64,000 bases of DNA from Psilocybe cubensis (GCA_017499595.2 CM039005.1:3162001-3226000), one strand, 5' to 3'. Shown: positions 2,581 to 28,474, numbered from the stretch's first letter. Program-made: numbers and translations. The notes: a model not told the origin generated them from the sequence alone.

Positions 2581-3239
2581 CACTGCGGGCATTGGCCTAT
2601 ATACTGATTAGTTAAATAATAAAATTATTTATTGTTAAAGGTTAAATATAACTTGTGTATTACAAATCAGTATATTCAAAATATACCACATCGTTACTGT
2701 CTCTGCATAGTCACAAGATTAAATTCGGTAAAGTGTGAATTTACCGCCTATTTCCAATGCGCGTTGTAGGTTAGTTAAAGTGTAATTGTAAATATTGAAT
2801 AATATTTGTACAACACTACGATAAAATTACTCTTTTTGGATATCATAGTTATGGGAAAAATATTTAGTGCTCGTGCAAATTTGTCCATCAGGCGCGTCTA
2901 CACCCTTCAGTGTTCTTGTTCTGCATTCAACATCACTCACTCTAGGGCCGGCCAGTACAGTCACACCATTGACCACCAACGACCAACGATGCGGCCCTCC
3001 TGGTACATTTGAAAAATTCTTTTTTTACTAGTTTTTTCAACCTAATTATAATATACACCCTCTAGCTTTACCGCCGCAAGTTCATGATCAGGGCCGACGA
3101 CGAGATCTCGTTGTCGACTCCGCGCCACGTACCAATAATAATAATTTATATGTGCAGGTGATATTCGTGCCACCGTGTCTGCCACATGAATGACCTCAAC
3201 TAACATAAAATTCCATTTGTCATACATATACCCTAGCTA

Positions 3240-4818
3240 TCATCTTGTGCTTGTAGTAGTAGTTGTTGTGCAAATTAACGATGCAATGTACTCAGCTTCC
3301 AAACGAGGCATGCCATATTTCGAAAGCTTGATAGCCACGTTTGACCGATTCCTCTTCTGCGAATCCAGGATTGTCATGATCAACCTAAGGGAACTCGCTG
3401 AATATCCGTGACACTTAAAATACCAATCTGCATCAGCATTGAACGAAGGATAGAACTGCTCCTCTGAGTCGTCGCTATTGGGTGGATCGAAGTAGGTGCC
3501 AACAATACCGGATAGGTTACGTATGTGGCTCCAAATCATGGTGGGAGTAGCACTGGTACCGGTACTGGTGGAATCGTCCGGTGTTTGAGATATATTCAGC
3601 GAGGCAAAGTTCATGAGCGGTGATGACGTGGTAGTACCCAGTCTCTGTCGCTGGGTCGGGCTACTGGGTGATGAAGGTGTCGTTGGTAGTCGGTGGTTTG
3701 CTCTAAGTCCTCGAGACGGAGTGGATGGCGGAGGCGACGACGTTACGGTACCGGTGTTCGGGATAATATTATTAGAGGTATACGTAGTAATAGTGCCTAT
3801 ATAATCGAAGAGCAGAAATTGTGTAAATTAAAAACAGTGTTGCAAGTCAAGAAAATGTCACGTACGCGTATTGTCAATGTTTCTCCCATATTCAAATCGC
3901 AGCGCTGTTGGCGTAGTTGATGGAGCAACTGCTATTCTGCCACCATGGAGGTCAGGATCCAAATTGAACTGACGACCTTGTCGGCTCGATGTATACGTAG
4001 CTAAGAAATTGTAACGTATATGGCAAGAACGGATCATCATCAAATATAAGTAATAAAAATAGGTGTAATCTTACGCATAAGCGGTTCAGGATCTATCTCA
4101 CGAGGAGGAGATACCCAGCGATTGCCCTCTTGCTTGGGCGTCCATATAAACATCGCTGTTTTATTGCGATCACCTCTCAATAACATCCAGGCTAAAGCTT
4201 CATGAAGGTTTTCAAGCCGACGCCAGCTTGCATACGAACGTCCCACAATTATGGACTTGACATCGATACTAACAGAGGAAAAGATGTACGTGTACAAGGT
4301 TGTGATCATGGACGGTCATTAGTTGGAGATATGTATATAAACACCAATGTGTTTGACTTACTAATTTCGATATATTAGGCTCGAGTTTCCACCAGAAACG
4401 AGAGGATAGTACGGCCCATTGAGCTCAGGTTTGTTTGATATGCGAAGAATGTCGGCGTTATTGAGAATCCATTCGACAGTGTCTTCCACAGGTCTATCGA
4501 AACCGATCCCGTTTCGAATGACGGTATGAATATATGAAACCGTATCTGCGTCTGTTTCATTGCTGAAAACAAATCCTACTGGCCATATCGTTTCAACGAC
4601 TTTTCCACTCTCAATGTAGGGACTACAGGGATTATTGTTCACGTATGCAGATGACTGATCAATATAATCGTAAATAGCATGGTCAACTGCACAACTTACC
4701 GGGCACGATGCACACCAGGCTGCTGACCTCCAATAACCGCATAAACACTAGATCTAGAGTGCGACTCAGTGCTATCAGTAACAGAGTTTGAATTTCCGGC
4801 AGAGTTTGAAAAATCCAT
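3240..4818 (-). CDS. Multi-exon hypothetical protein with RNase H1 N-terminal (Cauli_VI/hybrid-binding)-like motifs
   Basis: Exonic pieces VYAVIGGQQPGVH and YYPLVSGGNSSLIY...VKSIIVGRSYASWRRLENLHEALAWM resemble the YAVxxGxxPGIY...W..F....EA..F fold. C-terminal exon ADWYFKCHGYS...GMPRLEAEYIASLI. Internal exon junctions are uncertain. Confidence 0.55.
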
Positions 4819-5133
4819 CCTATCGTAGGGGCGTGTACGTTTGATCAAAGGTGTGCGGGTATCATATCCATAGCAGACTATATAATGGAGTTGTCGATTT
4901 GGACAATTTCCCACTGCCAAGATATCTGAGGCTTAACGAAAATAAGTATCCATTCACTAGGGTATGCTTCTCTCGATCGCAACATGCATGATACTACCTC
5001 GTAGCTTATATAGCTATATCTCGTAGCCTATAGCTACTAGTCGGCTTTAATACGCGTTAACATATATCAGAACCTATCAGAACCCGTAGTTATAATATAT
5101 TATTACCAGCGCCACATGATAGCAGGGAACCTT

Positions 5134-8100
5134 CTAGTCGTCGAGCTCAGGCTCAAAGGGTTCCCCATCCGAGCCATCATGATCAATATCGATATCGGAC
5201 CTCGTATACTGAGTCATTAGCTAGAAGATATATATCAGTTATATGGATATGATAGACGGAAGATTGTAGCCCAGAATGACACTCACTCTATCCAGCGGTA
5301 AAACGTGTAGAAGTCCGGAATAACGTCCCTCAATCAATGGTAGTGTAGCGCAGTGAGAAGTGACCCTTGAAATAGGAATCACTATCTTGTCAAAAATAGA
5401 TTCATGACATAAAAATCCTGCAAATTGTCCATAGCGTCTGTAGGGATCCGTTTGGGCATCAAAGGATTGAAATGATTTGATTTGGAGAAAAATATCGCTG
5501 GTGAGATGGCCCTCCGACCCAGTGTAGTGGTACTGAAATATTTTTTGGATAACCCCGGCTTTTATGTGCTCATGTTCATTGAAGTTGGGTGCTATCTCCG
5601 AGGAGAATATAATTGCGCTGTCGCGATAGCTTGAAGACAACGATGTGGCATAGCGGACACCGCGCGAAGAGACTTGCTCCAGGAAAATGGCATGTCGTGG
5701 CAATTCGTTAGTATAGATATTTCGATCCAATGCATTGCAAAGCTGTAGATAAACTTTGTCGCTGAGATATTCCATGAGACCAGGGTTGGAAAGCTCCGGA
5801 GGAAATGAAGTTGAGTGAGGGTCCAATATACTTGCCAATCGGAAACCACGAGCATCCTCAAGGCTTATGCCGTCCATTATGGCAACAAGTTTTTTTACTG
5901 ACTCGCGAATGTTGGCATTGTCAGACAATAACGCGCGAGTGTTACCACTCCTGCAAGAAGCAATTAAGAAAGTCGATTCTAATTGTCCTGTTTTGAACAT
6001 CATATAAGAAATATGGACTTCACAATCAGTCATAAGGTTGACGTACCAATTTTTGAATTGGTGTTGATTCGGTGGAAAAAATTGATGTATCGCTCATAAT
6101 GGGGCCCGCTATGTGAATGATTGGGTCCAAATAGTCCTAGCATATCTCCAATATGTCGCGACACATGATGAACGGGCTTGAGACGTTGGTCAGGGAAAAG
6201 AGTGGTGATATTTAAGATGTAACGATCAATATGATAGTTGTAGCGTTCAATTTGGTCTGTCGTTGTGATTCGCATGTTCGCAATTCGGACGGCGGCGACA
6301 AGGTCCATGAAATGGGTTAACATTTCACGTTTTCTATCAGATCCTTCTCCCCATAGACGAATCAGAGTTGTAGGAAGGTGAATGGTACAAATGACCCTCC
6401 AGTTATCAGCACTAAGCTTTCCTCTTTGGGTGGTTCCCCAATTACGTGGAGCGCGAGTAACCCATGTAGGAAGTTGTGTACGCCGCATGTCAGACCATAC
6501 AGCTTCCATTACATCTTTACCAAGTACCGCTCGGCGACGGCGCGACGGTGCTGCATGGTCAACAAACGAGACCAGTGTGACGAACTTGTCTGCGTCTTCG
6601 TCAATCTGAGTTTATCATGCACATATCAACATGTACATGTGCCGCTAGTAATTAGCACTTGTGAAAGCAAGCTTAAAATTTGAATCGTACCGTCTCTACT
6701 AGTAAAGAAAATAGAGCCTGCTTAGCCGACCTCCTGCTTTCGTCGATATCATGTTCGATCTCAAGGATCTCACACAAATATCCGAAGATTGCGGCTTTTC
6801 CTTGCAAGTACGCTCTGTTGCGTGAAGCAGCGGGATCGACAGCATCAATGAGATGTCGTATTATCCTTAAAACCAGAACCATGTTAATATTGGGATTTAA
6901 TGGTTCGGGAAGGCTTGATATCGAATTGCCAGACTGCTCCGCATCATCATCGCCGTCCTCGCTTTGATCTGTTGTCTCCGGGGAGCTTTCAATGCTTTGC
7001 ATCAGGACCTGACTATAACGCGAGCTCCGCCTCTGGGTTAGATGTGGCCATGATCAGTCATTACGAAGACGAAGCCAAAACATATACTTTCACGCACCCA
7101 ATTCAATATGTTATTTGCAAGAACCCACCGTGTTCCTATGACTAACGTGTTTCCTGGACCCAATATTCTGTTATCAACACAAATGCGATAAAGAACCCGG
7201 CGTGGATATGTCAAAAGTTGCTCAACCATCTGTCCGTGATTCTGGTGAATTGTCTCAGAACATCTGCGGTGAAGATCCTCAAGGTCTTCAGAATTGATAC
7301 TTGTATCAGGGGGGGGAAGAGGAGAATCAGATTTTCCATCCCCTCCTGCGTGGTTAACATCGATTTGGAAGACGGATCGACAGTGATTTTGCAACATATT
7401 AAGGTCAAGAGCGTGCATAGGATCGACCACAGTGTACAAAACTGGATCCCAATAAGGCAAGCGATAAAGCGGCGACCAGCGTATTGCATACATCCCAAAG
7501 ATATCCTTTCGGATGGATTCGCTCTCTGCATCTTTCCACCTTTGTCCAATATCCCGCAAATGTTGAGAATCTTTTGCTGGCCATTCCCGCCGATCGTGGA
7601 TATGTATATCATCTTTGTCTATGCTGCAGAAGGTGCAGAAATCATGGGAAGTGGATGAGCTTAAACCAGCAACCTGTCTAGCTGCAAGCATATCGCACAC
7701 CATCGGTACAAGCCTTGCCCAAAAAATTCGCCCGTATAATTCCTTGAACGTACGTGAAAACCTGACGCCATGGAACCAAAATTCTAAGAGATCATCAACA
7801 ACTAGTTCCATATATGGATTTAAGTCCTCCTTCGAGGGCTTGTCAGGTCCTGGAATAACCCCAGCCAAGTACATATTCTCCTGGAGATATCGAAGGTGTT
7901 GTGGCAAATTCAAAAGCACAAGCCAAATTCCAGTTGAAGAAACAGTTTGCTTGGCCGTTTTGTTATGGAATGGGTTGAAGCTGTCGACGGACAGGCTAAA
8001 AACCAATCGACCTTCTCCGTCGGGTTCTCTAGGGAAAAACGGTTCACCATCTTTATCTTTGAGATTCTGAAAGGTTTGAGAGCGCCATATATCATCAACT

Positions 8101-9378
8101 GAGTGATTTGGATCATCGGGATTAATGTTATGCTGTATCGGTTCATCCAAAAGATCCTCCATTCCTGGTCGCGATAGCAAGCGTCCAACCCACGATTTGA
8201 GGTCCTGGTGAATGTACTTTCTTATTGGAGACAAATGTGTGGTTCCGTCCGGCATATCCTTGGTCATCCACAATTCGGTGTCACATATAGGGCTGGTAGG
8301 TGTTCTTTTGTGCGTGCATCGTCTAATGAATGGATAGGGTGGATCTTGTTGAGCATTTTCAGGACGGTAAGGGTACAAAAAATGGCAAGATGAGCATGCC
8401 ACATATTGACGAATACGAGGAGTAAGATGAAATTGTCGCGCCAGGGGCCGAGGATCAACCGGCACACGTGGCAAGATTGTCGAGGGTGCAGGAACGGTTT
8501 CTAATACGCTTCTTATCCCACCAAGAAGCGCCCTTAACGCACGACGCGGGCTGAAGTAGACGTTTTCCATGACAAGACAAAGTACTGAAGCAGCTAGCAA
8601 GGTCTGGTTGGTAACAACGATGGGGCGGAAGAATATGTCTGAAGATCAGGAAGCCGTGATGTCATTTTGTCGAGCTCAAACAATGATGAAAAATTGGCAA
8701 CGAGAACTTACTGTTGTTAAAAAAAGGACGAGCCGATTCATATCCTGATCCACCTCGTTGTTGAGACCACTCTGACTGCTTCTCATGTATGAGTGAAGCT
8801 AGAGAATCATGAATATGCGCAATGAGTTCCGTGAGGGAAGCGGTCGAATTGTCTGAATTTTGGCATATTGAGAGTAATTCGTGAAGACGGTTCTCGACGA
8901 GAAGAAATGGTCTGTTGACAATGTCGTGGGTAAGAGAATAAATACCCGTGTTTGGTGTTGAGTTGTAATCATAATCCTGAGGCCATATAAAATCACCCGA
9001 ATCTGCGGGGTTGTTTTCAAATATCAGTGGTCGATCGTAGCTCGTAATAGGTAGCATCATCAAAGAGTCAATCTCTTGTCTTGCGAGATCGATGAAGGCT
9101 TCCCATGATGTACTCCGATTGCTCTCCAAAATTATTGAGGGTCTGCTTGTTCCGGATCCATGATGGTCAGATCCTGAGTGTCTGGTGGCACGAACTTCTT
9201 CACGAACACGCAGCAACACTCTGTCAGCTCTTGTGTGCTGGTCTCGAGTCGACCTAGAAACAAAATGACCAGGTCCTTCGTAGTTTCCAGAAGCAGGGTT
9301 GAAAGTGGTACAATACGACTTGCAGCGACAAAGAATTCGTCTTGGGCGTGTGCGAGGGTTCTGGGACGTGCTTTCCAT
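5134..9378 (-). CDS. CACTA/EnSpm (Tnp2/Transposase_21-like) DDE transposase, 6 exons, apparently intact
   Basis: N-terminal CRCKSYC...H. Motifs LSVDSFNPF, NLPQHLRYLQENMYLAGVIPGP, VCDMLAARQVAG, CTFC, RWSPLYRLPYWDPV..VDPMH, GKLSADNWR and HHVSRH..LFGP..YERY. GT-AG introns join ORFs 8662-9465, 7038-8600, 6673-7002, 6030-6509 and 5239-6033 plus a short last exon, all in frame. Confidence 0.9.
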
Positions 9379-9697: not shown

Positions 9698-12343
9698 TCA
9701 GCCTGTCAGTTTCTTTTTCTCCTTTTTCGCATGCTCGCGCTTATAAGTTTCCCAGGTCTGCTCCTTGATCCAATTCGGCGTCGAATCTGAGGCTGTAGCA
9801 TTCAATCTTCGCCCCAAGAATGTCGGATGTGAGATACCAGGTGTGATAAACTTCCCGTACATCTCAGTAACGTCATGCCATTTGTCACCATTTCCGAAAA
9901 ACCAACACTGAGACGTCAACAGTGATTGCTCAGGGGTAGTTGAGTGGAAGTACACATCACCAAGCTTAGCAGGAAGGTGTTGTGCAGGAAGGAGGGGCTG
10001 GCTAATCTTTGTGCTCGACAGAGTTTGAAACCAGCGAAAAGTATGAGTGACTCCGGCCTCCTTGAAGGTGGCGATCTCCTGTTTGAGCAGGGTCACTGGT
10101 TCAGATGGCTCCATAGGGGTTTGGTTGGGTGCGTTACTTAAGACAGCAACTGACGTGGGATGGATAGGATCTAATGATTGGACATTGGCCGTTGAAGTTG
10201 ATGATGACGGTACAGGAGCCTGAGGTCCATCATGAGAAACCGGCGTCACGGATGTCTGATTGTGTCCAACAGAAGGAGAGGCAGAGATTGGTTGGGGATT
10301 AGACGTCAACGAACTCATCCCAGTGTTATGGATCCAGGTGCTAGGAGAGGCAGGTGCCTGCGAAATTGACTGAGGTGGCTGCGCATGCGAAATCGAATGA
10401 GGTGCCTGCGAAATTGACTGAGGTGCCTGCGAAATCAACTGAGGTGCCTGCGAAATTGACTGAGGTGCCTGCAAAATTGACTGAGGTGCCTGCGCGTGCG
10501 AAATTGACTGAGGTGCCTGCGAAATTGACTGAGGCACAGCTGCCGATTGCGACATGTATTGGAGTTGTCCTACAACTGGTACAGATTCTGCCAGCGGCAT
10601 TTGATGCCCTACGACGGGTGCCGGCAAAATTGACTGAGGCTCCACCGACAACGTGTTGTATGGTTGGCTTAGAACCTGGGATATGGATACTGGTTGCATT
10701 GATCGGCGCTGCACAGCGGGTGCCTGGGAGATCGATTCAGGTTCTCCGGAGGACATGTAATGCTGTTGCCCCATGACCTGGGAAATGGATTCTGGCTGAT
10801 GTCTGGCGGGCCCTTGGTACACCAAATCGTTTGACACGACTTCAGCCACCGGCGAAGTCATGAATCCTAAGGGCTGACTTCTAGGCTGAAGAAATTGGAA
10901 TAAGGACATTGTTCAAATTGATGGTGCATTACATAAACTTACCGAAGTCGTTTCCGCTTGCGCATGCGCTCTAGAAGACGGGCCAGTGATAGTTTCTGGA
11001 ACAGACGGTGTTCCACGTAAAGCGCTTCGAACAGACATATGAGAACCAATGTCTGGCTGGAGTGAAGCATGCCGCAGAGAATGAAAAGGATCGTCCACAG
11101 GCACGACTGTAGGCCTTGGGGACTGTTGGAGACCAAGTGAAGGGTCTGGACTATACTGATGACCGGGGATTCTTTGTGAGCCGATATTGTCATTCGAGGG
11201 TATTGTGTCGTTAGGCCTTCGGGCATTCGCACTAATGGAGAGATTGTGCAGAGGTAGTCCAAGATCATTGGATGGTATGGTCCGCAAAGGATCCGGAATG
11301 TAGGGGGTTTGTGACGACGGACTACCCACTGGGTGAGCGGCGTTGTTGACATTGCTTGTTCCAAGCCTAGATCATTGTACTCGAATTTAATTTACAGCTT
11401 TTGAAGGCCTGGGGGAAAGGGTACTCACAAGACTTTTGCTACAATACCTAAACCCGTTTGATCACCCGTTAATATGTATTTGCATCCCTGCTCAATGATC
11501 TCCATAGGCACTGTGAATGGCGCTAGTTTGATCAGACCAGTCTGTGGATCGGAGAGGGTGAGCATATCTGTCTCGTCTCCAGTGAGCCGCCCTATCAATT
11601 GACGTATGTCGTCTTTGCGAGGATCTGGTCTGAACAGATAGAACAACCTAAACAGGCTGTCTTGCTTGTTGCGAAGATCGGAAGAATACTGGCCAAAATA
11701 TCGTCCTGAATGTTGATTCTCGCCGTTCGTAGACAAAGCCTTGATAAAGCTACCATATTGAGGGACATGGTCAGCTATTATATATCCTTGAGTTTCATGA
11801 AGACAGTCTTACTCGACGACAGCTGACCCTCGGTCTCCAACGGGGGTAATGGCCCGATCCTCTTCTTTGACCCTTTGTCCACGGTCCCGAATATTTTCAG
11901 AGGCGACATGGGACGTAAGAGTTTTGCGACTGTGAACTTATATGTAAAATAGTCATAAAATTTGGCAAGGACGATCAAACCTTTCTCCGGCAGATAAGTG
12001 ATAGTTCTCTTCTGTGTGCCTGCTACTTAAAATAAAGAAGACCTTTGAACCTGTTACACGCGAATGAGAAAGACTTGATATATACCTGGGATAATTTGCT
12101 CGCATTGAAAGCACTTTGTTCTCAGTAGGGGAGAGGCCGGATATAGGACGTTGAACCAAAGAAAGATCCAGGTCATACAACTGTTAAAAATGTGTATGAG
12201 ACGATGCACACGTTACTCATCGATGAACTAACATCTTTCTCGGGAAATGCAGGCAATTGCGGGAATGGAGGTTTCTTTGAGTTGGGCAGCGAGACGGGTG
12301 ATACTTGTGCACCTAAGTTGATAATATCTTGATTGGAGCTCAT
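9698..12343 (-). CDS. Multi-exon hypothetical protein with P/Q/S-rich repeats and a C-terminal GDVYFH..W..HP..RRL..PNW domain
   Basis: Co-oriented ORFs 11953-12180, 11778-11978, 11425-11736, 10913-11329 and 9698-10909 separated by short introns. Probable start MSSNQDII at 12343. Confidence 0.6.
10353..10535. repeat. Coding tandem repeat, 21-bp unit (ggtgcctgcgaaattgactga) encoding PQSISQA on the minus strand
   Basis: About 8 imperfect units visible directly, with degenerate copies out to ~10800. Confidence 0.9.
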
Positions 12344-13310
12344 TTCTGAGTCGACGTTGTCGCGAGTACTTTGAGAAATTCTGACAAGGGACTGCGGTAG
12401 CGGGAGCGAAATTTTGGCTGGAGATGTACTCGGTTTGATATTTTTTGATCATCTATAGGTACCCTTGGGGAGGTCCCTCAGCATCCGATCATGTGAGGAA
12501 ACTGGCGCTATCTCAACCACATTTAATTTGAAGCCATATAGATCATGATCGACATGCACATTCCGAATCCTTCATGTCCTCACGATCAGCGGCCATTGCG
12601 CGATCTATGAACCCTAGGCTTCATGTCTACAAATGCAGCGATAGTTTTCTTATGTTTCGCACATACATGCGGTGAAACCGCCCCATGATATTGCTTCGAA
12701 TTCGATAACGATTCCACTTGGCCCACTATATATGCCGCTATTGTTCTATGCATGTGTACGCGTGCCAGGCCTAGTACTAGTACGTCGTCTTTATCTCGAA
12801 TATGTCCAAATGGGAGAATTACACGGGTAAGACTGCGAGGTAAGTCCTAGCGTATAAGCGGATATGTTGCGGCCAATCCATAGCCCAAGGTGCGTTTCGC
12901 GGCCAAGTACTACTCATATCACATCGGGACAAGTCCCTTATGTGATATAACATGATTCCGTGGCATCGCGCCGGTACTGAGTAATCGATTGCGCAGTGGT
13001 ACCGGTAGACTAGTATATAGCACATACTAGAAATTAAAGGATAGGCTTGCAGGTTGAGGATCATGATGAGTACCGTAGCACCACATCGGGACATATCCCT
13101 TATGTGACAACTTTGGTAAGAAATCCGCATGGTCGTGTACTCAGAGGTGGAGCCGTGTTGGGGTTGATAGCTAATTATGTAATTATTCACCTAATCCATT
13201 CGTATGACTCATCATAATAATTATATAATTATCGTTGATCAAATTCGTGATGAGACTAACAGTCCACTTTCCATCGAGGCATACACGATAACCTTGATCA
13301 TTTCACCGTG

Positions 13311-13575: not shown

Positions 13576-16538
13576 ATGGCGAAGTAAGTACAACTCTTTC
13601 GCAGAGTCGGCGATGCATCATGGCTAATTCATGCAAAAAGTATTTCTGTCCGTCGTCAGTACGTAAACCGTTCCCGTGGTAGAGCTCAGATAGTCGACGG
13701 AGTACTGGTATATTCCCCCAATTCCAAGCGCTCCGTACAGATACCCATCAGATCAGCCTACCAATCCAAGGAGAATATTTTTCTACCTACACCCACGATC
13801 AAGGAGGCAACTTACCTCCACTCCAGCTCAAATGAACTCCCTTCCATTCGAGGAAGCTGCCAGCCCCATGCACATTATAACTTTTCTGGAGTCCGCATCT
13901 CCGACTACAAAACGCCCAATTGGTGGAATGAACATTGGGGATGGATTTCCTTCCTTGCTCGCCGGCCGGAATATAGAGGGTATGTTTTTGGCACATTGGG
14001 TTATGTTCCTCTCCCAAACGAGCTCGTCGCTCCCGATGAACGTACTCTCTATTTATTTCCCGATGACATACTTCAGAAATGGACCGCCTTGGAACGGGAT
14101 CTCTGTCGAGTGAGCCATCACCTTTCGATTCTCACAAATACCAGTATCCTCAAACCACCTTCGCCCTGGGCCTTTGGTTATACCAAAACTTATAAATCTC
14201 GGGATGCAGCTCGGCGTGCCTATCATCGTTCTCGTGATTGGTTTTCGATGTGGATGGGAATGATATCATATCAGATCGCAACAGTGATTGTAAAACAACA
14301 GGGCGTTGAGGGATATAACAACTTGTCTATCCCATGTTGGCAAGACGTTCTCTTGAAGAATTGTTGTGATACAGCGTGGTTGGAATCCTTCTTGGAGTCA
14401 GAAATTTTCAGATACCACGGAACACAGAGAGTTGGGTTGTTTGTCGATATCGAAGGCTCTCAGTACAGTGATATACGCAGGCAGCCTCCCGTGGAATGGT
14501 TTTCTAACTACTCGGTCCCCGTTTGGTACATTTGGAAACCAGAATACAACGCCGATAAACGATATCAGCATCTTGCACCATTGCCCCATCAGCTCCAGGA
14601 AGCCGCTGCCTCTGTGATTCCTTCAGAACCCCAACTTAGTCCTGATTTCCAGCTCCAGGAAGACATTCATGACGCAGAACCGATTGCACGTGAGGTTGTT
14701 CTCAGTGAAAATCATCCTATCGATGATAGTAGCTGGCAACTTTTCTTTACCCAGAGAGAGCAACGGAACAAGCGTACCGCTGCTACGGAGACCTCTACAG
14801 AGCGAGAGCTTCGTGAAAAAAGGGCAGAAATGCCACCTCAAAGCGCGAAAGTATTTGTGTGGGAGGAAAATGAATCCGGTGTTCTCGTGCGCGAGCCAGT
14901 AGGGCCTAAAGAACGCGCCAATGTATTGACCAGGTTTTCTGAGGAGCAGATCAGATACGATCCTTTTTCAAACGAATATGATTGTTCAGAACATTTTGGA
15001 CCCATCATCACTGGATTTTTTGAGGCTGACTACATTGAAGGTGGGGAAGAGCCAGACCTAGATGTACCTGAAAATGAACTTCAAACTGTTTCGGCAACAC
15101 TCCTTAATAGTTGTGAACCTCCATCCTCACTCACCATTTCTTCATTAGCGAGCGAAGGCGATACTGACTGGATACCAAGAAACTGCCTCCTCAAAGACCT
15201 ACTTGTCGAAGATAACGCAGCAGCTGAGATACTTGACGTCTTGAGAATTCACTTTGGTTACACCCCCCCCCTCATACTTGAATCATCCTCTGCCCCCCAT
15301 CATGTCTTAAGCGTGGCCATGCAAAGAAACTTCCTGAAGATCATAGGTATTAACGGACGTTCCTGCCCTGCTGGAGTCTTCCAAAGGCCCGCTATCGTTG
15401 CTGCCGTTGGGTTTATGCGCCGTTTGTGTCTGGCCTGCCGCGAACCAACTATCATCGCAGAAGACGAATGGGATCTCAACCCCATGCACAGGAATTCCTT
15501 AGCAACAAGCTCTAGGATATCCTGCATACAGAGAGTTCAAAAAACGTCTCATGAACGCGAACGTCCCTCTAAATCTCCACAAGGCCCCTCGCCAAAGCAC
15601 AGATCAGACGATCATTTGTACATGTTTAATTTTGGAGTTCAGGGAGCAATGGACTGGAAGCTGGCCGTAACCACGGCTGCTGACGCCGCTATTGTTTGTC
15701 GTTTGCCCGAAAATTACAACCAAGCCGAAATTGCTTTGTTTCTGCTACAAAGGGGGATCCCATTCCATACTCTCAAGCCCTGGCCTGCACATATATCCGT
15801 TGATTGTCACGATAGAAAGGCGCATCGCATAATTGACTTCCAACATGTTATTGGCATTCCTTCTCGTCCTCCGAAATATGTATTTGACACAACCGATTAT
15901 GCCCTATATGTTGAAAGAGCTTCTCAACTTTTAAGGGACACGAAGATTGGACGGGCGGCCTTGATGCAAGGAGGTTACGTCTGGAGAATTGCTGTTCCCA
16001 TTGTCAGTTTCGACGCAGTATTACAAGGCCCTGTTCTAGAACCTTCCGGGGAATACTTGCTCGTTAGAACCCAAGACGGGGATTCATATTTTGATAATGA
16101 GCTTGATGCTTGGACAATTGATACGCTCAGTGGCCTCTATCATTGCTACACAGGTAAATTTAATTCCATCAATTTTCTTTCAACCCATCTCCATTTACGG
16201 TTCCATGTTAATGAAAGCTCATATCTTTACTCTCAGGAGAAAGCGATCAGATTGCAAAGAAGTCATGGTATCCTCTGGCCAACACTCAAGAGCATTCAGG
16301 CCATGACCATGGACGGTGGACCGCGATTTCGGAGGAGATATATAACCTTTTCACATCACGCAACTCATTTGCCTATATCAGTGAAGCAATGGACAATGCC
16401 CCTCAAGTGCAGCATCAGCCCAAATCTGCTAATAAGTGGCGAGACGCTACTCGTGGGATTGGAGACCTTAGGAGGGCTAAATTACAACTAGAGCAGGCCT
16501 CCAAGGACATGATATCTAAGGTTCAGCGTGTATTCTAG
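13576..16538 (+). CDS. Large uncharacterised protein (~950 aa), 3 exons
   Basis: ATG at 13576, intron gtaagt..aag, then a frame open from ~13640 through ORF 13996-16491. Motifs VLVYSPNS, RSRDWF, RVGLFVD, LLQRGIPFHT and GRAALMQGGYVWRIA. Last exon KKSWYP...W...KWRD ends with TAG at 16538. Confidence 0.8.
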
Positions 16539-17460
16539 AATCTGTCACGGGTATGACAAGACATAGTATATAAAGTTTTCAACATATCAATTTCTTGATC
16601 ATAATGTACAAAATACTACCGCTAGAAATAGTAATTGATTTCATTAAAGCAGAAATACACATTTCGAGTTCAACATTCATGCGCACGCGTACGGTATATC
16701 TTTGGGACAGAAAATTTCTTCGACTGGACCTACTCCTTGGGGTACTTGTCTGTAGTCACCACAAACAATATCGGTCCAAGAATTCTTCACGTGTCACTCC
16801 ATATCGGCGTATATATACAAGCTCTTCGTAATCTAACAAAGCAATGGATATACAAGGAACTTCACCTTAAAGTTAGCTACTCATCAGAGCGATCGAGGCC
16901 CGCTAGCAATATACTGCTTCGAATTCGCCATGAATAAGGATGGTCATGAGAACTACCGGGCCACATGTTCTGATGGTGAACATGATAGGCGCATCTGAAG
17001 CGCATCCGTCAGATGTGTTGTCCGAGGTCTTCCACGCTAGTTTTTGACACGTTTTATGTGGCCCAGTGCCCGACGCATGCGCATCTACCTAAGGCCGCTC
17101 ATCATGTGTGCTCAAGCTCTTCTCGATAAGACTATCCGTGCAAGATTTCCCGAGCGCTAACCAAAGTTGTTTGTTTCATGTGCTGGAGCGAATTCTCTTC
17201 GATCCTCTTTCTATTTGCCAAGGCTAGTCCGGGCATAGTCATGTTTATTCGATTTTCCCAAGGATCTTCTATCTGGCTGTATATGGTCGGTTCGTTGTTT
17301 GGAAAATCTAGCAGCTCCGCCTACATGATTGTTCATATCGTGTGGAGCCATGGGGTGCTTGAACTTCCAAGTTGTTGATAAATTCAAGAAATTCTATAAT
17401 ACTAGGGTATAAGAGGCCAAAGAGACACCCGCTCTCACCCCATTCATTCATTCTAACTCG

Positions 17461-19671
17461 ATGGATACCGACGACGACGTATACTTCACTGCGGAATCAC
17501 TCGTTGACGCCATCATTTCGTTGCCAGAGACCGGTTACACTGATGCTCTCAACAACTTGTTGGAAAGCGTCCTTAGGTCTGAGCATCGTCTACGGCGCGC
17601 GCTCGCATCCTTTGAAGAACCCCAGGAGATCGACTCGCGATTGCTCGATCCTTATGCGGGCCTCATAGATATTTTTGCTGTCCCTGAAATTGTCAGGAAA
17701 GCACGCCCTCGACCATGGAACGAGGCCCTCTTTGAGGTGGCGATTGACGGCTTTGTCAAAGAGCAGTTTGCCCATAAGCACTTGTTCAGACTCCCCAGGG
17801 ATCTTCAGCGGTCTCCTGGCGTTCTCTATACAGTACCGTCTTATGATCACTTCCTACGCCAGTGGAACGTTTTTACTAACAACGCTATCTCTACCATTTC
17901 TGATTGGTCAAACATCTTGGTGGCTGGAGGCGCCGTTCTGGCCTCTCTTCAACCCATTCCGGTCACAGAACACTATGGTCATCAAGAGTTTTTACCGCCT
18001 ACCCGCAGAGTAATATCTCAGTATTTCGAAACTGCGTATAAAGAGGCCGATGTGGATATTTTCCTGTACGGCATGAACGCAGAACAGGTCAGTGTCTTTT
18101 GTTTCATTCTGGCTGCACCACTTTTCTTATTTATAAATTTATCTTTATCACTCCAGGCACAATAGAAAATTACATTCATTTGTCGAGAGATTCAGGACAA
18201 TCTCGCGAGACAGTGTGTTTTCATAAGGCGCGCTAATACCATTACCATCTGGAGTAAGTCCTGCCTTCTCTATATAATCTGACGTCAACAATTTTTAGAA
18301 TACTGTAGGACTCACTCTTTTCATTTTAGCGTCCGGCGATACTCGCCAAATTCAGATTATTCTCCGTCTGTATCGTTCACCTGCCGAAATCCTCGCTGGG
18401 TTTGATATCGATGCAGCGTGCTGTGCATTTGACGGTATGCCGGCTAACTTATACGTATCTGTGCCATTGCACATGATTTGACCTAACTCTTGCTTTTCAG
18501 GGAGCCATGTAATCTTATCTGCACGGGCCCTCGTTGCGTTGATGACCCAGAAAAACACCGTAGACATGTCAAGGAGGTCCCCGAGCTACGAGGTTAGGCT
18601 GCAAAAATATGCAACCCGAGGTTTTGAGGTGTATCTACCCTCCCTTGACAGGGAGAAGATAAATTACGCTAAGGTTTAATTTTCGAATCCTTGCTTCAAC
18701 AAGAGTCCTGTTGATCAATAAAATTAGGTTTATAATAAAACCCATGTCGTTTTTGGGAAGGGCCTCGAGCGCCTCTTAGTATACGAGTATCTTCGTTATG
18801 ATCCATTGTTCTTCCCCTACCTTCGGACGCAGAGGCGTGGAAGACGTAGGCGCCGTGCCGCGTGGTTCCGCCTCAACCTTTCCGAATTTGACTTCGTTCC
18901 TATGGGGGAGGACAGCAATTATGACCGTGTTTGGGGTCGATTGCCTAGTCATTGGGATGTGGATCAAGTCAAAGCGCACATTTTGAGGATGGTACAATAT
19001 GTTTTTCTATGATGAATTTACCGGTTCTGATATATAAGTGAATTCAACTCTTTGTGACTCAGGAACGAGCCATGAACTCTTCTTGGAAGCTTCGCAAATA
19101 TCGCCGCACAGCTCATCGCCACTTTAGTGCATTTAGCGACGACGTTCTTGACTTATTTGACAGATGCTGTATGCTTGAGGAGGTACGCCCCTTTTGTATT
19201 GATGTTATTCAGAAACTAAACCGGGTTATTATATGAATGATTACAGACTGGAGGCTGCCCGGAACCAGTTACTGAGCGCGACATACAGCTGGTAGAAGAA
19301 GAAATTAAGTCACGTACGTATATGTGGGGTCCCCTGACGTGAGTAATCCCATAATCTGTGATAAGTTGCTCAGCGCTTAGCGTTTCCTACATCGAGTAGC
19401 TTCATCACGGAGAATCCTGGACAACAACTCCTTACGGGAAGCTTCCGTCCCGTTACTGTTGATGATTGGGAGGAGGGTGCCTACGTTTCCGACGGCCAGA
19501 ATCCAAGTGTTGACGAGCGCGAGACAGACTACTCCTTTCGATGGATGAGGTATTTGAAAAACCTGGTGCAGTTCTAAACTTACAATTCGAATAAATTTCA
19601 ATTTTATGATCATGATCAACCCCGGTCGGTTCCTGTTAATTTGGCACACTTTCACCAATGATCCCAAATGA
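17461..19671 (+). CDS. Pol-beta-superfamily nucleotidyltransferase-like protein, multi-exon; possible in-frame stop at 18163-18165
   Basis: WSNILVAGGAVL...ADVDIFLYG (hGG..DxD signature), QIILRLYRSPAEILAGFDIDAACCAFDG, RRSPSYEVRLQKYATRGF, GLERLLVYE and NPGQQLLTGSFRPVTVDDWEEGAY across GT-AG exons. The 3' end is uncertain. Confidence 0.7.
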
Positions 19672-20756: not shown

Positions 20757-21934
20757 TGTCAATCGATCGCAAATAGACTTCTCCAGTACGGTTGAAGGAA
20801 TGGGTTGTCAACAAAAATTCCTACAGATGCCTGGTTATATATTCTTGTTTGTACAGCTGCGTGGGAGATAGATCTGAACATATCTGGGGTTCCAGTAGGT
20901 TCTGTGGATCATGGCCAAGTAGCAGTACAGTAGATGTCCGATATCTAGGCAGATAGGGTCACTCGGATTAACTGCGCATGCATGTATCTTCCTAGTGTTC
21001 TCGCATCGGGTGTGCTACTCTGGTCAACAAAACGAACCTGAGGCGTGAAGGCGTGGAGGTGCATCAAGGATCCTCATTGCTCGTGGTATCTCTCGGCAAG
21101 CAGCTGTTTATTAGGCGCGTGTATGTCTTTTCATCTTCTTCCTTTCACCTCGAAGCTCAATACAATCAAGGTGGACAGGTCCCACAATCATTTGCGAGTA
21201 TGAGAGCCAGGAACGACCAGAAATATGGATTAAAGGAGCTTTATGGCAACATGAGGCAGTCACGAAGCTGATTAATGATGCATTTGGAGGTTCCACGGAC
21301 AGGCTTAGGATTGGTTGTTTTATGTGCTTGGGAGGAACTGACCGACGCTCGCAGACCGCAACTTAGGCTAGAATTGAAGTACATTCAATTTAAAGCCATG
21401 AATATCGCTGCATTATTCACGATATATGTACAGTAAATGTCTCTGGACAGGAAAATACGAACGAATTCCAGCATAAATTTGGGATTGTATAGTCCGGAAA
21501 CACGTTTATGCCTCGTGTTCTTAGCGCTTCGACATATTGAATAATACTCGGTCGATTCAACCGATCCACAAAACCGCTGCTCGGGACTTTTGTGTGACCC
21601 GCCTATTGGAGTTGAAAATTATGGTTGCGCGCAAGGTGCATGCACATTTTCAATTCGCACCGCGGCTGCCCATGGCCATGCATGTTGATGAACTTGAACC
21701 CCATGTCTCGATCGATGATCCAATCAATCGAATCGCTTTTGGGTCCACCTGTACATGTACTGGATGGGATACACGAGAAGATACTAATTTTGCGATCATT
21801 ATGTTATCAATCTCATATCGCCAAGTAGTTGAGAACTTGCTTAACTTCTCCCCCCTACATATATACGCAGAATTTCTGAGCAAACCTTCAAAGTTTGCAA
21901 TCATTTCTATTCGTCATATCTGCTCGCCTGCTCA

Positions 21935-24122
21935 ATGGATCCAAATTCCTTCGTCACAGTTCTATACCCCCGTTTATTCAACGGGAGATCACAGATATCA
22001 AAGAACTCGACTATCTCTACGAGTTCAAAGGTCAGCAACGTTATCAAGCTCTCGCCAGATGGTTCTTTCCTTGTCATAGGAGATGAAGTTGGAATGATCG
22101 ACGTGAGTATTTGCATGGCTATAGGAACTTTTGGCATCAGCCTTATCAATGTTAACGATAATCTGCGTACAGGTCCGAATGAAGACCACAACAGGATGGT
22201 TGCATGTAAGGCTTTACCACGCAGGAGCAGCTGTACGGGCCCTTCTCTGGCACCCAACGCGTGCCAATACGTTCCTTTGTGGTTCTGCGAATGGAAATTT
22301 ATATATGATACAGTTGTTTTCCAACGGTCAGGATGGGGTAAGTACAAAAATAATATCAATATCAACGTACCCACATTCTAAATTACCACTACATATATTC
22401 TCTGCAGGGGGACATGATCTGCTATGGCGAGGTCCCTGGATTCGTGCACCAAATTTCCATGAGTGGCGATGGGAAACAGCTGGCTATCGCCTATGGCCTT
22501 GATGTCGCCTTGGTCAATAATCCTTTTGAGCGTGAGTACCAGTATAATTGATCAATGTTCATTCCTTACTAATGAACATTTTTTGTCACCGTTCCGGATC
22601 CAGAGAAAAATATTTTAGGCACATTAGTATCTCTGGCGGTTCCACGACATGCATCCACTCTCTACCTTATGGACTACCCTATTCCCAGAGGGCTGTATTT
22701 CCTTGATAATGACCACATTCTGGTGGTTTTTTTCGGTCAATGCGGAATTATGTACGTCATGTTTTACTTGCGAAAGGCTCATCCCTTGTAGATATTAATA
22801 CATAATGTATCGCCCCTTAGAGCCTTTTCCCGACATACCAATAGACCTGCCTGGAGCATACCTATATCCAGTAACTCTCTGTAAGTAACATTTCAAATCC
22901 ATATTATATGTTCTACGTCGAATTTAATGGTGCAACTTAGCGTGGCATCCTCAGCTCTTTCTCCGTCTGGAGAGCGTCTTGCCATCAAAACAGTCAATCA
23001 CACGATCGAGTGGTATTCAATCTCACATCAAAAACGTTTATCAACAACTGTTATTTCCAGACGCAATGATATTGCCAACTCATTAGTCGACATGACCTTT
23101 CTGGACGAAGACACTGTCATTGTGGGACATGACTCTGGATGCGTGATCCTGGCTTCCTACGGCATGGAGGACCCTACGGGCATCTTTAACACGGACGATT
23201 TCGAATGCAGTAAGTCAAAACACCTTCTTTTCCTTTCACATTCCTTTCTAACGATCAAATATTATCTTTTTTGGGGGGATTAAACAAATGCAGTGCCAAT
23301 ACAGGCGCTAGTACGTCTGCCCTTACATCAATCCTAACTGTCGATATAAATATACTGAGCCTTTTCATAGACTTGTGGTGTGCCCAAAGGCACTGAGCGA
23401 CCCCTCATACTTGCGGTCGCAAGGAGGATGCTTCCGGACACCCTCGACTTCGCCTACAACTCTGTCATCCATGTTGGGGAAATTGATACCCCTGCCCAAC
23501 TTCCTTATTACCAGCCCACCATGGACTCAGACAAGGATCGCTCCGGGGCAGAATCAAAGAAGTTTGAGGTATGACACCCCTAACTCAGTTTCGCTGTATT
23601 GCGCTGACTTATAATCCATTATCTACATCTATGCAGTCCCTGCTTTATTCGAATTTGCCACTTGCCACCATTGTGGGAGTAGCAGGAATGGCAATTTTCT
23701 TTGGTGTTCGTCTTTTATCCAACCCAACTGATACAGGACCGACGATTGTGACCCCATCCTTCGCTACGAACACATTGTATTCTACCGTCACTGAGACTGC
23801 ACATGTCTCTGCGCATGCAGAGAACATTACCTGGTTTGTCACACAAGTGGAGACATCTCACTTCACCGTCACAACGACCGCTCACTCAACATCGACGGAG
23901 ACAGCTTACTCGACAGAGACTGTCCAATCCACGGTGACAGAGACCATCACTTCGGAAAATAAAGTCACGGATATTTTGACGCGATTTGTTCCAGCGTCCA
24001 CAACCGCCACGTCTACTTCGACTATCACAAGTACCGCCGTTGTTCAGTGCGACACTGGTGTATCGTGTATCTGCCCTCTGTCTGGCACAATTGAAGCAGT
24101 CGCTACGCCTAGGGGTGCCTAA
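21935..24122 (+). CDS. WD40-like beta-propeller protein with a C-terminal transmembrane helix and Thr/Ser-rich tail, multi-exon
   Basis: Blade-like segments LSPDGSFLVIGDEVG, VRALLWHP..FLCGSANG, MSGDGKQLAIAYG, LSPSGERLAI and VIVGHDSGCV. TM LATIVGVAGMAIFFGV, then a Thr-rich ORF 23571-24122. Start uncertain. Confidence 0.65.
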
Positions 24123-24874: not shown

Positions 24875-26972
24875 ATGAGCGAGTCGACAACCTCTACTAG
24901 TGCTTTCAATCGCCCAACTCAAAGAATGCGCATGGGCTACACGTTATCCATGGTAGACCATCCTGGGAGCCGTGCAGGTCAGTTCCATTCCGTAGTAGAC
25001 TATTTGAGCCAATATAACGTGATGGCGAGTCAGGGACTAGCTACACCGGTACCAGAGCTAGTGTATCCTCTCTAGCCGGGAACTTTAGAGCTGCGTTACA
25101 CTTTGGCTCTGCGGTCGAGACAGAGGGATCATTTAAATCGGCGAGGTCTTATATTTCATCACGAAGCCCCGTTATCAGCTCTCCAAGTTTCCCTTATTGT
25201 GAACAGACTGGTGCTGCAAGACATGGCCGTGCGGAGGATATGATATTGTCTGCAATTCCAAGGCATGTGCCACAGCTTCAAGTTGGACAGATTCACCCAC
25301 AAGATCGATCGGTGCACTCGGACAACAGAAATCATGATCATTTCTCAACAAACTTGGATGTTACACAAGGCCTTCTATTGGAGCGAAGCTCTGCAGAACA
25401 TCAGGATACCAAGTACCGGGAAGCACAAAATCGCCACCGCCCCCGCAGGGGAAGAAGATCTATCCCATATCATCGACCTCGGAATGCCGATCCCTATGAA
25501 GGTGATACCGAAGGACCTGCCACATCCATACGCTATGGTGGCGGTAACTTTCAAAGCAATGCTATTCAGCAAGGGTTTTCCCAACCCGGCGACGTTGAAG
25601 CCTTGCCTGTACATGGAACGTCAGAAAGTATCTTACGGTCGAACCCAGTTTGTTGGATATTCTTGTTTTCCCTTGAACTGTATTTGCTAAAATTCTAATT
25701 TTAGGAGCCGGACAATCGAGTACATTCTATGCTTGCAGGAATCCAAGAGCATTTAGACCGCGTCAATCAACGACTAGATGTCGTCACATCAATGATGACC
25801 ACAGTCCATGCTGCTGGACTCTCTTCGACTGCTGCCAACTCCAGTCAGGCCCATCCCACCCCAGGAAATTCTTCTTCAAGCCCTACTAATAAGAGGTCTA
25901 GACGACGTTCCTCATCGAGGTTGGAATTCATGGTGGGTATATATATATACTTGCCCTAAGAGGTATTGAACCCATAGTTCCCAAGGCATCTGTTCGCGAG
26001 CTTATTGATCTCAAACTTGGCGGCCCCAAAATGTTCGATCCCAGGCGGATGGTCTCTGCAGATGAACTTGAAGACTACTTGATAAAGTGGGACGAGGGAG
26101 ATAATGACTACCAGCGTGTTCCGTGCTGCGATATCAATAACTTCAGGATCGCTTTCAATTGCACTCCAAACAGCCCGTGGAATAAGTCTGCTTCTTGGGT
26201 TTTCGCAAAATATTTCATGACAACGGTCATTTCTCCATCTTACACAATTCACGATATACAGAAGTACTTCATCGTTCGCTGCGCATCACTCCTAAAGGCA
26301 TACAATCGACACCTACAGTCTCCTCAAGCTGCTGCGGCATTGGCTAAGCAAATGCGCCATACTGCAAGGAAGAACCAGGTAGTTTTCTCATAGTTATGTT
26401 ATTATAAATGCTCATTCTTCTCTTCTTTGTACACATAGAAATACTCTAACCGACTGGAGACCTGCAAGAGTCATCCATATCTGAGGCATCATGTCGGTAT
26501 GGTTGAGCAACTCGGGCCAGGTGGGATGTCTAGCGATGAGTCCGATTATGAGCCCACACCAGCTACCGCTCATCTCATTCCTCCAAACATTAAAGAGGTT
26601 TATCATCTTGTTACGCTGAGGCCAGTCTGGAGAGCTCCAGAGGTTTCGCGTTGGCTCAGTAACATCGACTCCTTCAGGATAATTCTTCGTTCAAGAAGCC
26701 CCGACACCCGCGGCAATTATCCTTATGTTAGATTTCGCCATGACATGATTGTGGGAGAAAGTAAACCAGTGAAGGGATTGCCGGTGAATACTTACGATTT
26801 GGGATGGATAGCGACAAGGGTGTCAGCCGAATACGACGCTGGATTCACAAATGAAGCGTATGTCTTTGTCCACGATCCAAGGCTCCTTGAGTAAGTGTAC
26901 CCTTTTTCACGTTATGATCTTGAAATTTAGTCAACGTCATTCATGATCAATTTATCTAGATATTTCAACTGA
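24875..26972 (+). CDS. Multi-exon hypothetical protein with LGxxGMSSDES...WR..V..WL..ID motif (candidate transposon accessory ORF)
   Basis: ORFs 24782-25075, 25240-25698, 25729-25959, 26031-26393 and 26499-26894 in one orientation with short introns. Motif QLGPGGMSSDESD...PVWRAPEVSRWLSNID...GLPVNTYD. Confidence 0.65.
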
Positions 26973-28474
26973 TCATGATTCCTTGGGGTCGGCGTTATAG
27001 TTACTGGACACCGTGAACAGCTATCATACATTCCAAGACTGTATATGTACTAGTGCCGGCGAGGTGACGTTCAATTAAATCTCTAACTTCAATTTCTATG
27101 CGAGCATTATATACGGTCTTCAAATTTAAAGCAGGTACTAGATATATACATGTACGTATAAGTGTTTCCTTGGAACTAGTACTCTAGTGGTAACTTTGAT
27201 AATACGAAAAATTTGAAGTAGTCGTACGACGTGTATACGTAGGTACCATTAACCGGCCGGTACGGCGATCATTTAGCCGGTACGTAGTTGCACGTGGGGT
27301 GTCGTTCAGCCTGGCAGTCGAAGGCCTTTCTTAAAATAACCACTGTTTTCCAGTTCGTACAGCATTCCCAACAAGACCTCCTCAGGAACAGAAGGATGCC
27401 GAGCAGGATGGCTGAGGGGAAAAGATGAGGGGAGACCCATGAAAAGGGAGACCCGCCAGGTAGGTTAATGATATTCGAATTTAGTGTCCTTGTTCTCAAT
27501 TCTCTACAGCCCGTTCGCGCAAGCTCGTTTTGCGATCCCTGCCATCCACACCCGTCTCGACATATAAAATATGTCCACTTCCGCTCGCACTCTGCTCACC
27601 AACCATCCGTCTCGCCGCCACCCTCCCTTTTCCAACCCAGCGACCTGCTCACCACTCGCAGGCGCCGCTTCCCTGCCGGCCTTTTCCTCCACCCCTTCTG
27701 CCGCCGATCCCATTGACAACCAGCACCATTGTACATGTGCTGCTGGCCGTTGTTCGACATTTCGCGCCTCGTACCCGCCTCTTCCTTTCATTGTGACGAC
27801 CAGCAGCTTTGGGCAGCTGGTCCGTATCATGCCTCTTGATCCTTTTTGTTCATTGCATTAATTTGCCTCCCCCGCTGCCTCTAATCCCTTGAACCGACAC
27901 AACAAGCAGCTCTCTCGCAGCTTCTCCAGCATCGTATCGTCGTTACTCTTTTGTGGTTCTTATCTACTAGTAATTTTATTGTCATTTACAACCGTTTGTA
28001 GTTGGGAATAGAATATCTAGATTAGTAGTAGTATATCTTACTTCCTTAAATATTGTTTTGTGAATCATTTTAACCTCACAGGAAACCATCACATAGTATG
28101 ACCATAGGTCCAATACAGCTCACTAAATGGGTAATATTTTTTAGTCAAAAAAGGTATGTTTTTTCCCTCTTTAACTAACTTGTTCTAAATCGGTATACAC
28201 AAGTTGTTTTGTGAAATTGATGCATTACATACACTGGTTATATAGTGATTGGATGCATTACAATATACCGTCTTGGTATTAGATGAATTCATGACCCGAT
28301 ATAATTTAAAATATATTTACATTTTATTTATATGTTATATCCAACTTATATAAGCCAATGCCCGCAGTGATACGGCCTGCATCAGCGCCCAACATCAACT
28401 GACTATCGTCGTGACCCAGCACGTGATTCCATGGAATTCCATGGAATTCTACCATCACGTCAGTAGTGCAGATC

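Follow-up and report, generated by a model that had tools for sequence, protein, structure and literature searches.

A 25.8-kb element of Psilocybe cubensis assigned to the EnSpm/CACTA transposons and its putative accessory genes

A 64,000-nucleotide stretch of Psilocybe cubensis DNA (GCA_017499595.2 CM039005.1:3162001-3226000; hereafter the window, in whose coordinates all positions are given) contains at 2581-28369 a segment in which a transposase gene and several other coding regions lie between matching inverted ends. The locus raises the question of whether this segment is one mobile unit and, if so, to which class it belongs and where its additional genes came from. A first-pass annotation, made from the sequence alone, had described it as a young, possibly active giant DDE transposon that might represent an undescribed class and that served as a multi-gene vehicle. 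Our analysis agreed with the part of this description that concerns a single DDE transposon of unusual size, bounded by terminal inverted repeats (TIRs) and a target-site duplication (TSD) and with several more genes inside. We consider it probable that the segment is one autonomous EnSpm/CACTA (CMC) DNA transposon, whose extra genes are mostly its own accessory repertoire.

Termini, transposase and superfamily

The boundaries of the element were examined by a search of the window for inverted pairs and by direct reading of the flanks. The features that define the element are as follows.

2578..2580, no strand: left copy of the TSD, ATA, read directly and the same as 28370-28372
2581..2603, plus strand: left TIR, CACTGCGGGCATTGGCCTATATA, from the inverted-pair search (23 nt, 96% complementary)
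5239..9378, minus strand: transposase gene (Tnp2/Transposase_21, EnSpm-CACTA type) with five exons, from Pfam, collinearity with P0004, P0006 and P0010, and splice sites
28347..28369, minus strand: right TIR, 23 nt, counterpart of the left arm
28370..28372, no strand: right copy of the TSD, ATA, read directly

The element spans 25,789 bp, with a GC content of 45.4% versus 45.6% in the rest of the window. Its arms match at 22 of 23 positions, with one mismatch, and the outer 16 nt (CACTGCGGGCATTGGC) are exact. Apart from a palindrome at 50.5-51.2 kb, this was the sole long-range 23-mer inverted pair with no more than one mismatch in the window, and none of 100 windows simulated under a Markov-1 model held any 23-mer inverted pair at that stringency. 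No more copies of the 16-nt end were found within the window, even when three mismatches were allowed. The 3-bp TSD of EnSpm/CACTA elements was present as ATA on both sides, a match with a chance of 1 in 64, since there is a single insertion to judge from. The CACTG-starting repeats and the exact ATA duplication named in the first-pass annotation were thus both recovered. It might also be proposed for such a locus that ordinary host genes lie by accident between two small CACTG-ended elements unrelated to each other, or between chance matches, as a single pair of ends was observed and a clean empty site was not recovered (see below). We regard this as very improbable, considering the near-perfect arms with their identical 3-bp flanks, the result of the simulations and the lack of any further 16-nt end in the window, together with the transposon-associated character of the enclosed genes and the occurrence of homologous termini beside related genes elsewhere, as described below.

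The transposase gene begins with an ATG at 9378 and ends with a TAA at 5239-5241. Its best relative was the Galerina marginata protein GALMADRAFT_65801 (1247 aa, 58% identity), and a tblastn search of the window with this protein gave five collinear blocks (9348-8704, 8645-7083, 7077-6688, 6605-6045 and 5994-5272), which together represent residues 11-1239 of the 1247-aa homologue. Frame-keeping GT-AG introns were available at all four junctions (~8711-8639, 7097-7033 or alternatively 7064-7009, 6690-6606, and 6046-5988), at positions that fit the block ends, in agreement with the earlier proposal that the exons splice in frame. The 535-aa frame at 7038-8645 (minus strand) matched Pfam Transposase_21 (PF02992) with 48.7 bits (E = 6.9e-13), the gathering cut-off of this model being 28.6 bits. 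A search limited to proteins of 938-2675 aa yielded 39 long relatives, 35 of which contained PF02992; the named ones were nearly all from Agaricomycetes, Hypsizygus, Gymnopilus, Hypholoma and Panaeolus included. The three candidate catalytic motifs pointed out previously all fell into conserved columns of an alignment with 24 relatives: the first D (DSFNP) was kept in 23 of 24 homologues, the second D (CDMLA) in all 24, and the E (YERY) in 21 of 21 aligned rows. A CxxC (CTFC) following the second D was also conserved, as was an HxxxH ahead of the E (22 of 22 aligned rows). On the evidence of its sequence, the transposase looks intact and looks to carry the catalytic signature.

The signature D, D, C(2)C, H(3)H, E has been reported for the EnSpm-Mirage-Chapaev-Transib-Plavaka clade, and ends of the form CAC..GTG with a 3-bp TSD for fungal EnSpm elements (Kojima 2025, PMC12730594). 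Transposase_21 (PF02992) is the Pfam assignment given for CMC elements, which are described as expanded in Agaricomycetes (PMC5751038). The element has the CACT(A/G)...(T/C)AGTG termini of this superfamily, with CACTGCGGGCATTGGC exact at both ends. For Plavaka elements, the reported ends are TGT..ACA with a 2-bp TSD or CATCA..TGATG with a 2-3-bp TSD (PMC12730594). The Plavaka model PF18759 had no match on any exon frame of the transposase at E up to 0.01-0.1, and this result, with the CACTG ends, argues against membership in that group. By its sequence features, the element is assignable to EnSpm/CACTA (CMC) and is not an undescribed class; with an ordinary Transposase_21 enzyme, 39 long relatives of that enzyme, and ends and TSD as in fungal EnSpm, the earlier suggestion of a new class was dropped.

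Copy number and insertion site in sequencing reads

To assess the element in sequenced samples, we used nine runs from three studies that contain window positions 1-10000, each with at least 91% of the sampled words of this region; four of the nine may be the source of the assembly. A contig from run X9 covers 2514-3635, so that the left junction was independently reproduced. Read depth, taken as the sum of both strand columns with reads accepted from 90% likeness, was obtained for two raw-read runs, X11 and X12 (1.63 and 1.73 billion letters, respectively).

X11: element ~10-24, mean near 16; left flank 43-61
X12: element ~8-21, mean near 13; left flank 40-57

The depth of the element was about one-third of that of the left flank in both runs. 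Because the depth was even along the element, no extra copy at 90% identity or more was evident. The samples analyzed have the element as a single copy, at the same site. The genome of P. cubensis is ~46 Mb in size, at which the haploid equivalent would be ~18-fold; this gives a lead, to be read as a rough estimate, that each dikaryon would contain one copy of the element and about three of the flank. Among the variants listed, the left flank contained many of intermediate frequency, and those of the element were nearly all fixed.

In X11, the one run for which this loose end is listed, 18 reads depart from the left flank at position 2577 (3 bp outside the TIR) and continue as GGTGGGTAGG..., pointing to a second version of the flank whose likeness stops at 2577; this version may be a differently structured second allele or a paralogous flank. 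No clean empty site was seen among the loose ends listed, where a class of fewer than ~14 reads could escape. The description of the element as young and possibly active therefore went further than the data, as the structure is intact, yet neither a second copy nor a clean empty site was found. Activity and mobilization as a whole unit are putative properties of the element. A further run, X14, guessed to be RNA, gave a single contig on 1-180, which is outside the element and says nothing on expression.

Additional genes and their relatives in other contigs

Besides the transposase, stop-to-stop frames suggest about seven gene-sized coding regions between the TIRs, listed below; loci with an L number are metagenome contigs described in the next paragraph.

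3243..4747, minus strand: open frames of 91-195 aa from the list of open reading frames (ORFs), possible gene; no Pfam match and no relatives in 56 loci
9701..12448, minus strand: open frames upstream of the transposase from the ORF list, including a 404-aa frame, possible gene; no Pfam match and no relative in 56 loci
13588..16535, plus strand: 967-aa family gene; the NCBI model JR316_0009449 is 14248-16170 plus 16218-16535, and relatives align from 13588
17413..18676, plus strand: gene directly downstream of the 967-aa gene, with AGGAVLA...D(V/I)x(I/L)FLYG motifs; relative in L039
19380..20807, minus strand: three open frames of 113-125 aa, possible gene; no Pfam match and no relative in the loci
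21525..24119, plus strand: coding region with a Thr/Ser-rich end frame at 23568-24119; the middle part, 22354-23280, has a relative in L034
25334..26891, plus strand: JR316_0009453 (P0043), NCBI model, 456 aa, with a C-terminal domain carrying GMSSDES...WR motifs

The 967-aa frame was 99% identical to the hypothetical protein JR316_0009449 of P. cubensis, which is annotated once in this species at 90% clustering (one contig). A word-based protein search with this frame returned three proteins, namely P. cubensis' own and two relatives, and a pattern scan with the alignment of these three sequences located 56 loci of the family in Joint Genome Institute (JGI) metagenome contigs, with 23-38% identity in the best segment. 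Members are 770-1160 aa long. Uninterrupted frames of at least 750 aa numbered 22 and came from 21 of the 56 loci, indicating that the family is widespread and mostly intact. The 967-aa protein had no Pfam match and no usable Atlas match, and the family profile had no matches among PDB sequences. An AlphaFold2 (AF2) model (25 sequences, predicted local distance difference test score (pLDDT) 65.6) contained confident helical and small beta domains, for which Foldseek found no match in the PDB at E up to 0.001. The alignment of the family had no invariant or nearly invariant histidine, which argues against a 2-His-1-carboxylate dioxygenase such as TET/JBP.

The ORF at 26439-26891 was 100% identical to the matching part of JR316_0009453, and the upstream exons of that model matched at 100% and 96%. 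A profile built from five C-terminal domains of this type (hereafter the GMSSDES domain) was searched against 1.84 billion representatives clustered at 50% identity and retrieved 2421 proteins with E values of 0.001 or below (944 with 1e-10 or below), in which the domain is usually C-terminal; ten long carriers had no Pfam partner in common. The AF2 model of JR316_0009453 (139 sequences, pLDDT 78.4), confident over residues ~160-456, had no fold match in the PDB at E up to 0.001. The 17413-18676 gene had no Pfam match, and its nearest Atlas clusters were hypothetical proteins of Basidiomycota; a profile search of the PDB with this gene retrieved WD-repeat proteins at a best E of 0.047, which we took as noise. 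The 21525-24119 region had no significant Pfam match. Within the 404-aa frame of the 9701-12448 region, a tandem 21-bp repeat at 10352-10534 encodes APQSISQ-type heptads.

The numbering of the tags JR316_0009449 to JR316_0009453 suggests three further annotated genes in between. Where the first-pass annotation counted seven more spliced genes, about seven coding regions were seen, two of them matching NCBI proteins of P. cubensis and four having relatives elsewhere; the rest of that claim, splicing included, is putative, and the support for the three minus-strand regions consists of open frames. A Pfam scan of 36 ORFs between the TIRs and of JR316_0009453 gave no significant match except the transposase, neither a recombinase family of the kind expected of a Starship captain nor Tet_JBP being among the hits. 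Very divergent PE-type TET/JBP proteins are reported to be visible only by fold comparison (PMC12730594); no such fold match was obtained for the 967-aa and JR316_0009453 models, the only two proteins folded.

We then searched every window frame of at least 50 aa against the 56 loci that hold a 967-family gene. The matching frames all came from inside the TIRs, apart from two opposite-strand frames that overlapped true matches and a single Plavaka frame, well to the right of the element in the window, which matched L024. Four of the approximately seven extra coding regions had distant relatives (24-45% aa identity) on these soil-metagenome contigs. A Tnp2-type transposase was located 8-10 kb from the 967-family gene in 3 of the 56 loci (L009, L014 and L039), and a GMSSDES-family gene was present in four (L009, L014, L015 and L034). 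In L009 and L014 the relative of the GMSSDES domain is directly beside the Tnp2 transposase, so that Tnp2, the GMSSDES family and the 967 family occur as a trio in the window and in both of these loci. Upstream of their 967-family genes, L015 and L034 contain relatives of the two halves of JR316_0009453. In L034, a gene of the 22354-23280 type (L034:2901-3182, 44.7% identity over 94 aa) was found ~2.5 kb upstream of the GMSSDES-type gene, with order and spacing unchanged from the window, and in L039 a relative of 17413-18676 is directly downstream of the 967-family gene, again as in the window. Among the 11 loci of at least 12 kb, five contained at least one further family of the element and six did not (L002, L013, L017, L033, L048 and L056).

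Comparison of related loci with each other also revealed termini. L015 and L034, from one metagenome, share 81-85% DNA identity, and their likeness ends right after ...AAGCCATTGTCCCTAGTG, a terminus that the right end of the window element, ...AAGCCAATGCCCGCAGTG, matches at 14 of 18 bases. Over 3394 bp, L016 and L027 share 99.35% identity, and they diverge immediately after ...GTGCCAGCAGTG (also written as ...GCCAGCAGTG), where ATATAT... follows in L016 and TGAGTG... in L027. The 967-family gene ends 0.75-0.85 kb inside the terminus in all four loci. These shared break points at CACTR indicate that elements with a homologous CACTR end carry the 967 family, and the different flanks of L016 and L027 indicate that one such element is present at two flanks. 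A CACTG pair in L056 (1811/8577) was rejected as a further example, since the inverted repeat continues past CACTG into the flanks. As a separate observation, a 20-nt word, CACTAGGTCAAACCTGAGTG, is repeated many times and in either orientation across 6600-18900 of L048, an 85-kb contig on which its copies flank and separate two 967-family genes; short inverted repeats may be arrayed there.

These data bear on whether the extra genes were captured from the host, as in the proposal that the element represents an undescribed class, a giant DDE transposon ferrying about seven captured host genes in the manner of a Starship. In favor of capture, several non-transposase coding regions lie between exact ends 25.8 kb apart, P. 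cubensis has only one annotation of the 967-aa gene, and the three regions with no match in the 56 loci could be captured host DNA. We nevertheless judge this proposal quite unlikely. The transposase is a plain Transposase_21 enzyme with the CMCT signature, the ends and TSD are those reported for fungal EnSpm (PMC12730594), four of the additional genes are found again in other contigs along with transposases or a homologous terminus, and no tyrosine recombinase was detected. The 2421 representatives of the GMSSDES domain are the copy pattern of a transposon gene, unlike that of single-copy host genes. With at least four extra genes from families found repeatedly alongside transposases on other contigs of fungi, the earlier picture of a multi-gene vehicle, in the sense of a Starship, gave way to that of a transposon with what look like accessory genes of its own.

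A different possibility is a nest, in which unrelated mobile units were inserted into a CACTA frame, so that the 967-aa and GMSSDES genes belong to other elements and the length is secondary. Genes of the 967 family adjoin not only Tnp2 but also Plavaka transposase genes, located just upstream in L003, L017, L037 and weakly in L024 (PF18759 matches were found in L017 and L003), and a Helitron helicase gene in L020, where a 1223-aa frame with DUF6570 and Helitron_like_N (4816-8484) lies directly downstream of a stop-interrupted 967-family gene. The 32 frames of at least 500 aa, without the shorter ones, were placed in a quick maximum-likelihood tree. In it, the type of neighboring transposase was unclustered (6 changes versus a shuffled mean of 6.5), and the window copy grouped on a long branch together with L001-L004, which include one Plavaka-linked locus. 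The unclustered neighbor type fits accessory-gene exchange between elements and equally fits separate units crowding together in transposon-rich DNA; the window itself is transposon-rich, with a Plavaka transposase at 58359-59633. On the other hand, repeat searches of the window found no internal TIR pair, long terminal repeat (LTR) or long direct repeat inside 2581-28369, which makes a nest less likely for the window element. Moreover, the 967-family gene is the last before the CACTR terminus in L015/L034 and L016/L027, with no other transposase between, and the trio of Tnp2, GMSSDES and 967 genes is repeated in the window, L009 and L014. Taken together, we consider a nest unlikely.

In addition to the Plavaka and Helitron neighbors and the unclustered tree, the following points weigh against a single transposon with an accessory repertoire of its own. 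Subterminal repeats typical of CACTA elements were not found, the terminal 820 bp at each end containing only two-copy matches of 10-27 nt. The Tnp2 genes of L009, L014 and L039 are at the edge of the retrieved DNA, and may or may not share an element with the 967-family gene. Neither another complete copy nor the left end of a related element was seen, so that joint mobilization of the whole 25.8 kb is argued from one TIR/TSD pair. The GGTGGGTAGG continuation of the left flank in X11 does not correspond to the element or to the right flank, and it does not occur anywhere in the window at up to 3 mismatches. Finally, 3243-4747, 9701-12448 and 19380-20807 had no relatives in the searched data, and searches of Pfam, PDB sequences and folds found no function for any accessory gene. 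Even with these points counted, one EnSpm/CACTA transposon with its own accessory genes remains the explanation that we favor.

The rest of the window contains other repeats and coding regions. At 55873-59633 (minus strand) there is a transposon gene of another lineage, whose 425-aa frame at 58359-59633 matches Pfam Plavaka (E = 6.9e-13); its assignment as a KDZ transposase was rejected, since Pfam assigns Plavaka, and the frames at 55873-58268 (minus strand) look like a continuation of the same gene. The palindrome at 50523-51187 is 665 bp long and near-perfect (arms ~92-94% complementary) in AT-rich surroundings, and may be a foldback or an element resembling a miniature inverted-repeat transposable element (MITE). 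Inverted collinear matches (164-190 with 42470-42496, and 318-358 with 42329-42369) belong to a short multi-copy repeat; the depth in X11 and X12 was ~95-112 at ~300-340, with many loose ends at 300-440. Paralogous coding regions with ~70% DNA identity lie at 39900-41200 and 53270-54570, and also at 48892-49428; their frames look like multi-pass membrane proteins, with a weak Yip1 match below the cut-off. A direct repeat of ~310 bp with 84% identity occurs at 41931-42237 and 45975-46280.

Proposed mode of action and comparison with known systems

In the mechanism that we propose, the DDE transposase would bind the CACTG... inverted repeats and excise the whole 25.8 kb in a cut-and-paste manner, and reinsertion would produce the 3-bp duplication. 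The 967-aa family, the GMSSDES family, the 17413-type gene and the 22354-23280 gene would constitute accessory genes that belong to the element itself and were not captured from the host, and such families may be exchanged among EnSpm, Plavaka and possibly Helitron elements, in the manner of the fungal TET/JBP genes and the red-algal PAG1-3. By analogy and from genomic association, the accessory proteins might serve the transposon, either by binding its ends as TnpA does or by counteracting silencing, the choice between the two being a guess. More generally, and as a tentative proposal to which we give somewhat less than even weight, Agaricomycetes may harbor an old lineage of large EnSpm/CACTA elements with the conserved terminus CACTRSNGRCANNGG and a multi-protein accessory cassette, with the 967 family and the GMSSDES family of thousands of members among its parts, that hops among EnSpm, Plavaka and Helitron elements. 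If this is true, the cassette would represent new transposon-encoded functions (end-binding, anti-silencing), similar in role to TET/JBP or PAG1-3 and unrelated to them.

What appears to be new here is the cassette itself, a set of four or more recurrent families lacking any known domain or fold, carried by a 25.8-kb element of the Agaricales. We found no description of these families in the literature, with Repbase and the supplements of PMC12730594 outside the search; the families are nameless, and a near relative may already be present in either source. Accessory genes are described as rare in transposons, and in the same account TET/JBP is said to be the only accessory gene found in basidiomycete Plavaka elements (bioRxiv 10.1101/2025.02.11.637652). 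Coordinates are now available for an intact basidiomycete CACTA element with at least four recurrent accessory families, and a large block of mushroom "hypothetical proteins" could be labelled as transposon-associated through the GMSSDES family. For the annotation of P. cubensis, JR316_0009449 to JR316_0009453 and their neighbors should be regarded as probable transposon genes and not host genes. The element also raises the questions of whether the accessory proteins bind the CACTG ends and whether they counter silencing.

Plant En/Spm elements encode TnpD and TnpA and combine CACTA ends, a 3-bp TSD and Transposase_21 with a poorly conserved second protein. The window element has several additional genes versus the one of plant En/Spm, and the arrays of subterminal repeats that TnpA binds in plants, which are not required for the superfamily, were not detected in it. 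The two-ORF structure of the plant elements has been described previously (PMC9191631). Within basidiomycetes, CNIRT6 of Cryptococcus neoformans is a CACTG-ended CACTA element with a long transposase gene, whose transposition has been shown experimentally (bioRxiv 10.1101/2025.05.19.654958). The window element resembles it in host phylum, ends and long transposase gene, but CNIRT6 has one annotated gene of ~6.9 kb, and the accessible part of its report mentions no multi-gene set.

The element is also similar to the fungal EnSpm elements, including the TET-positive EnSpm of rusts and Agaricus bisporus (PMC12730594), in having a basidiomycete host and at least one non-transposase gene common to several transposon superfamilies; TET/JBP genes are likewise reported to move between superfamilies in that work. 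Unlike the TET-positive elements, however, several other, unnamed accessory families were found here, and no TET/JBP in the Pfam and fold searches described above. The giant Plavaka of the red alga Bostrychia, an EnSpm-superfamily element of 17-19 kb with the accessory genes PAG1-3 (bioRxiv 10.1101/2025.02.11.637652), likewise has a multi-gene accessory cassette with homologues in other transposon superfamilies. The present element differs from it in its fungal host and non-Plavaka transposase, and is single-copy, whereas the Bostrychia families are hugely amplified. By their description, with which the comparison was made, PAG2 and PAG3 contain methylase/SET and 2-oxoglutarate (2OG)-oxygenase domains, whereas the window genes have no recognizable domain.

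With the Starships of Pezizomycotina, as far as the accessible accounts describe them, the element shares the property of being a large unit, considered mobile, with several genes. It differs from them in its DDE transposase, versus a tyrosine recombinase, in belonging to another fungal subphylum and in being about ten-fold smaller than many of them, and its extra genes look transposon-associated, unlike the host metabolic or adaptive cargo of Starships.

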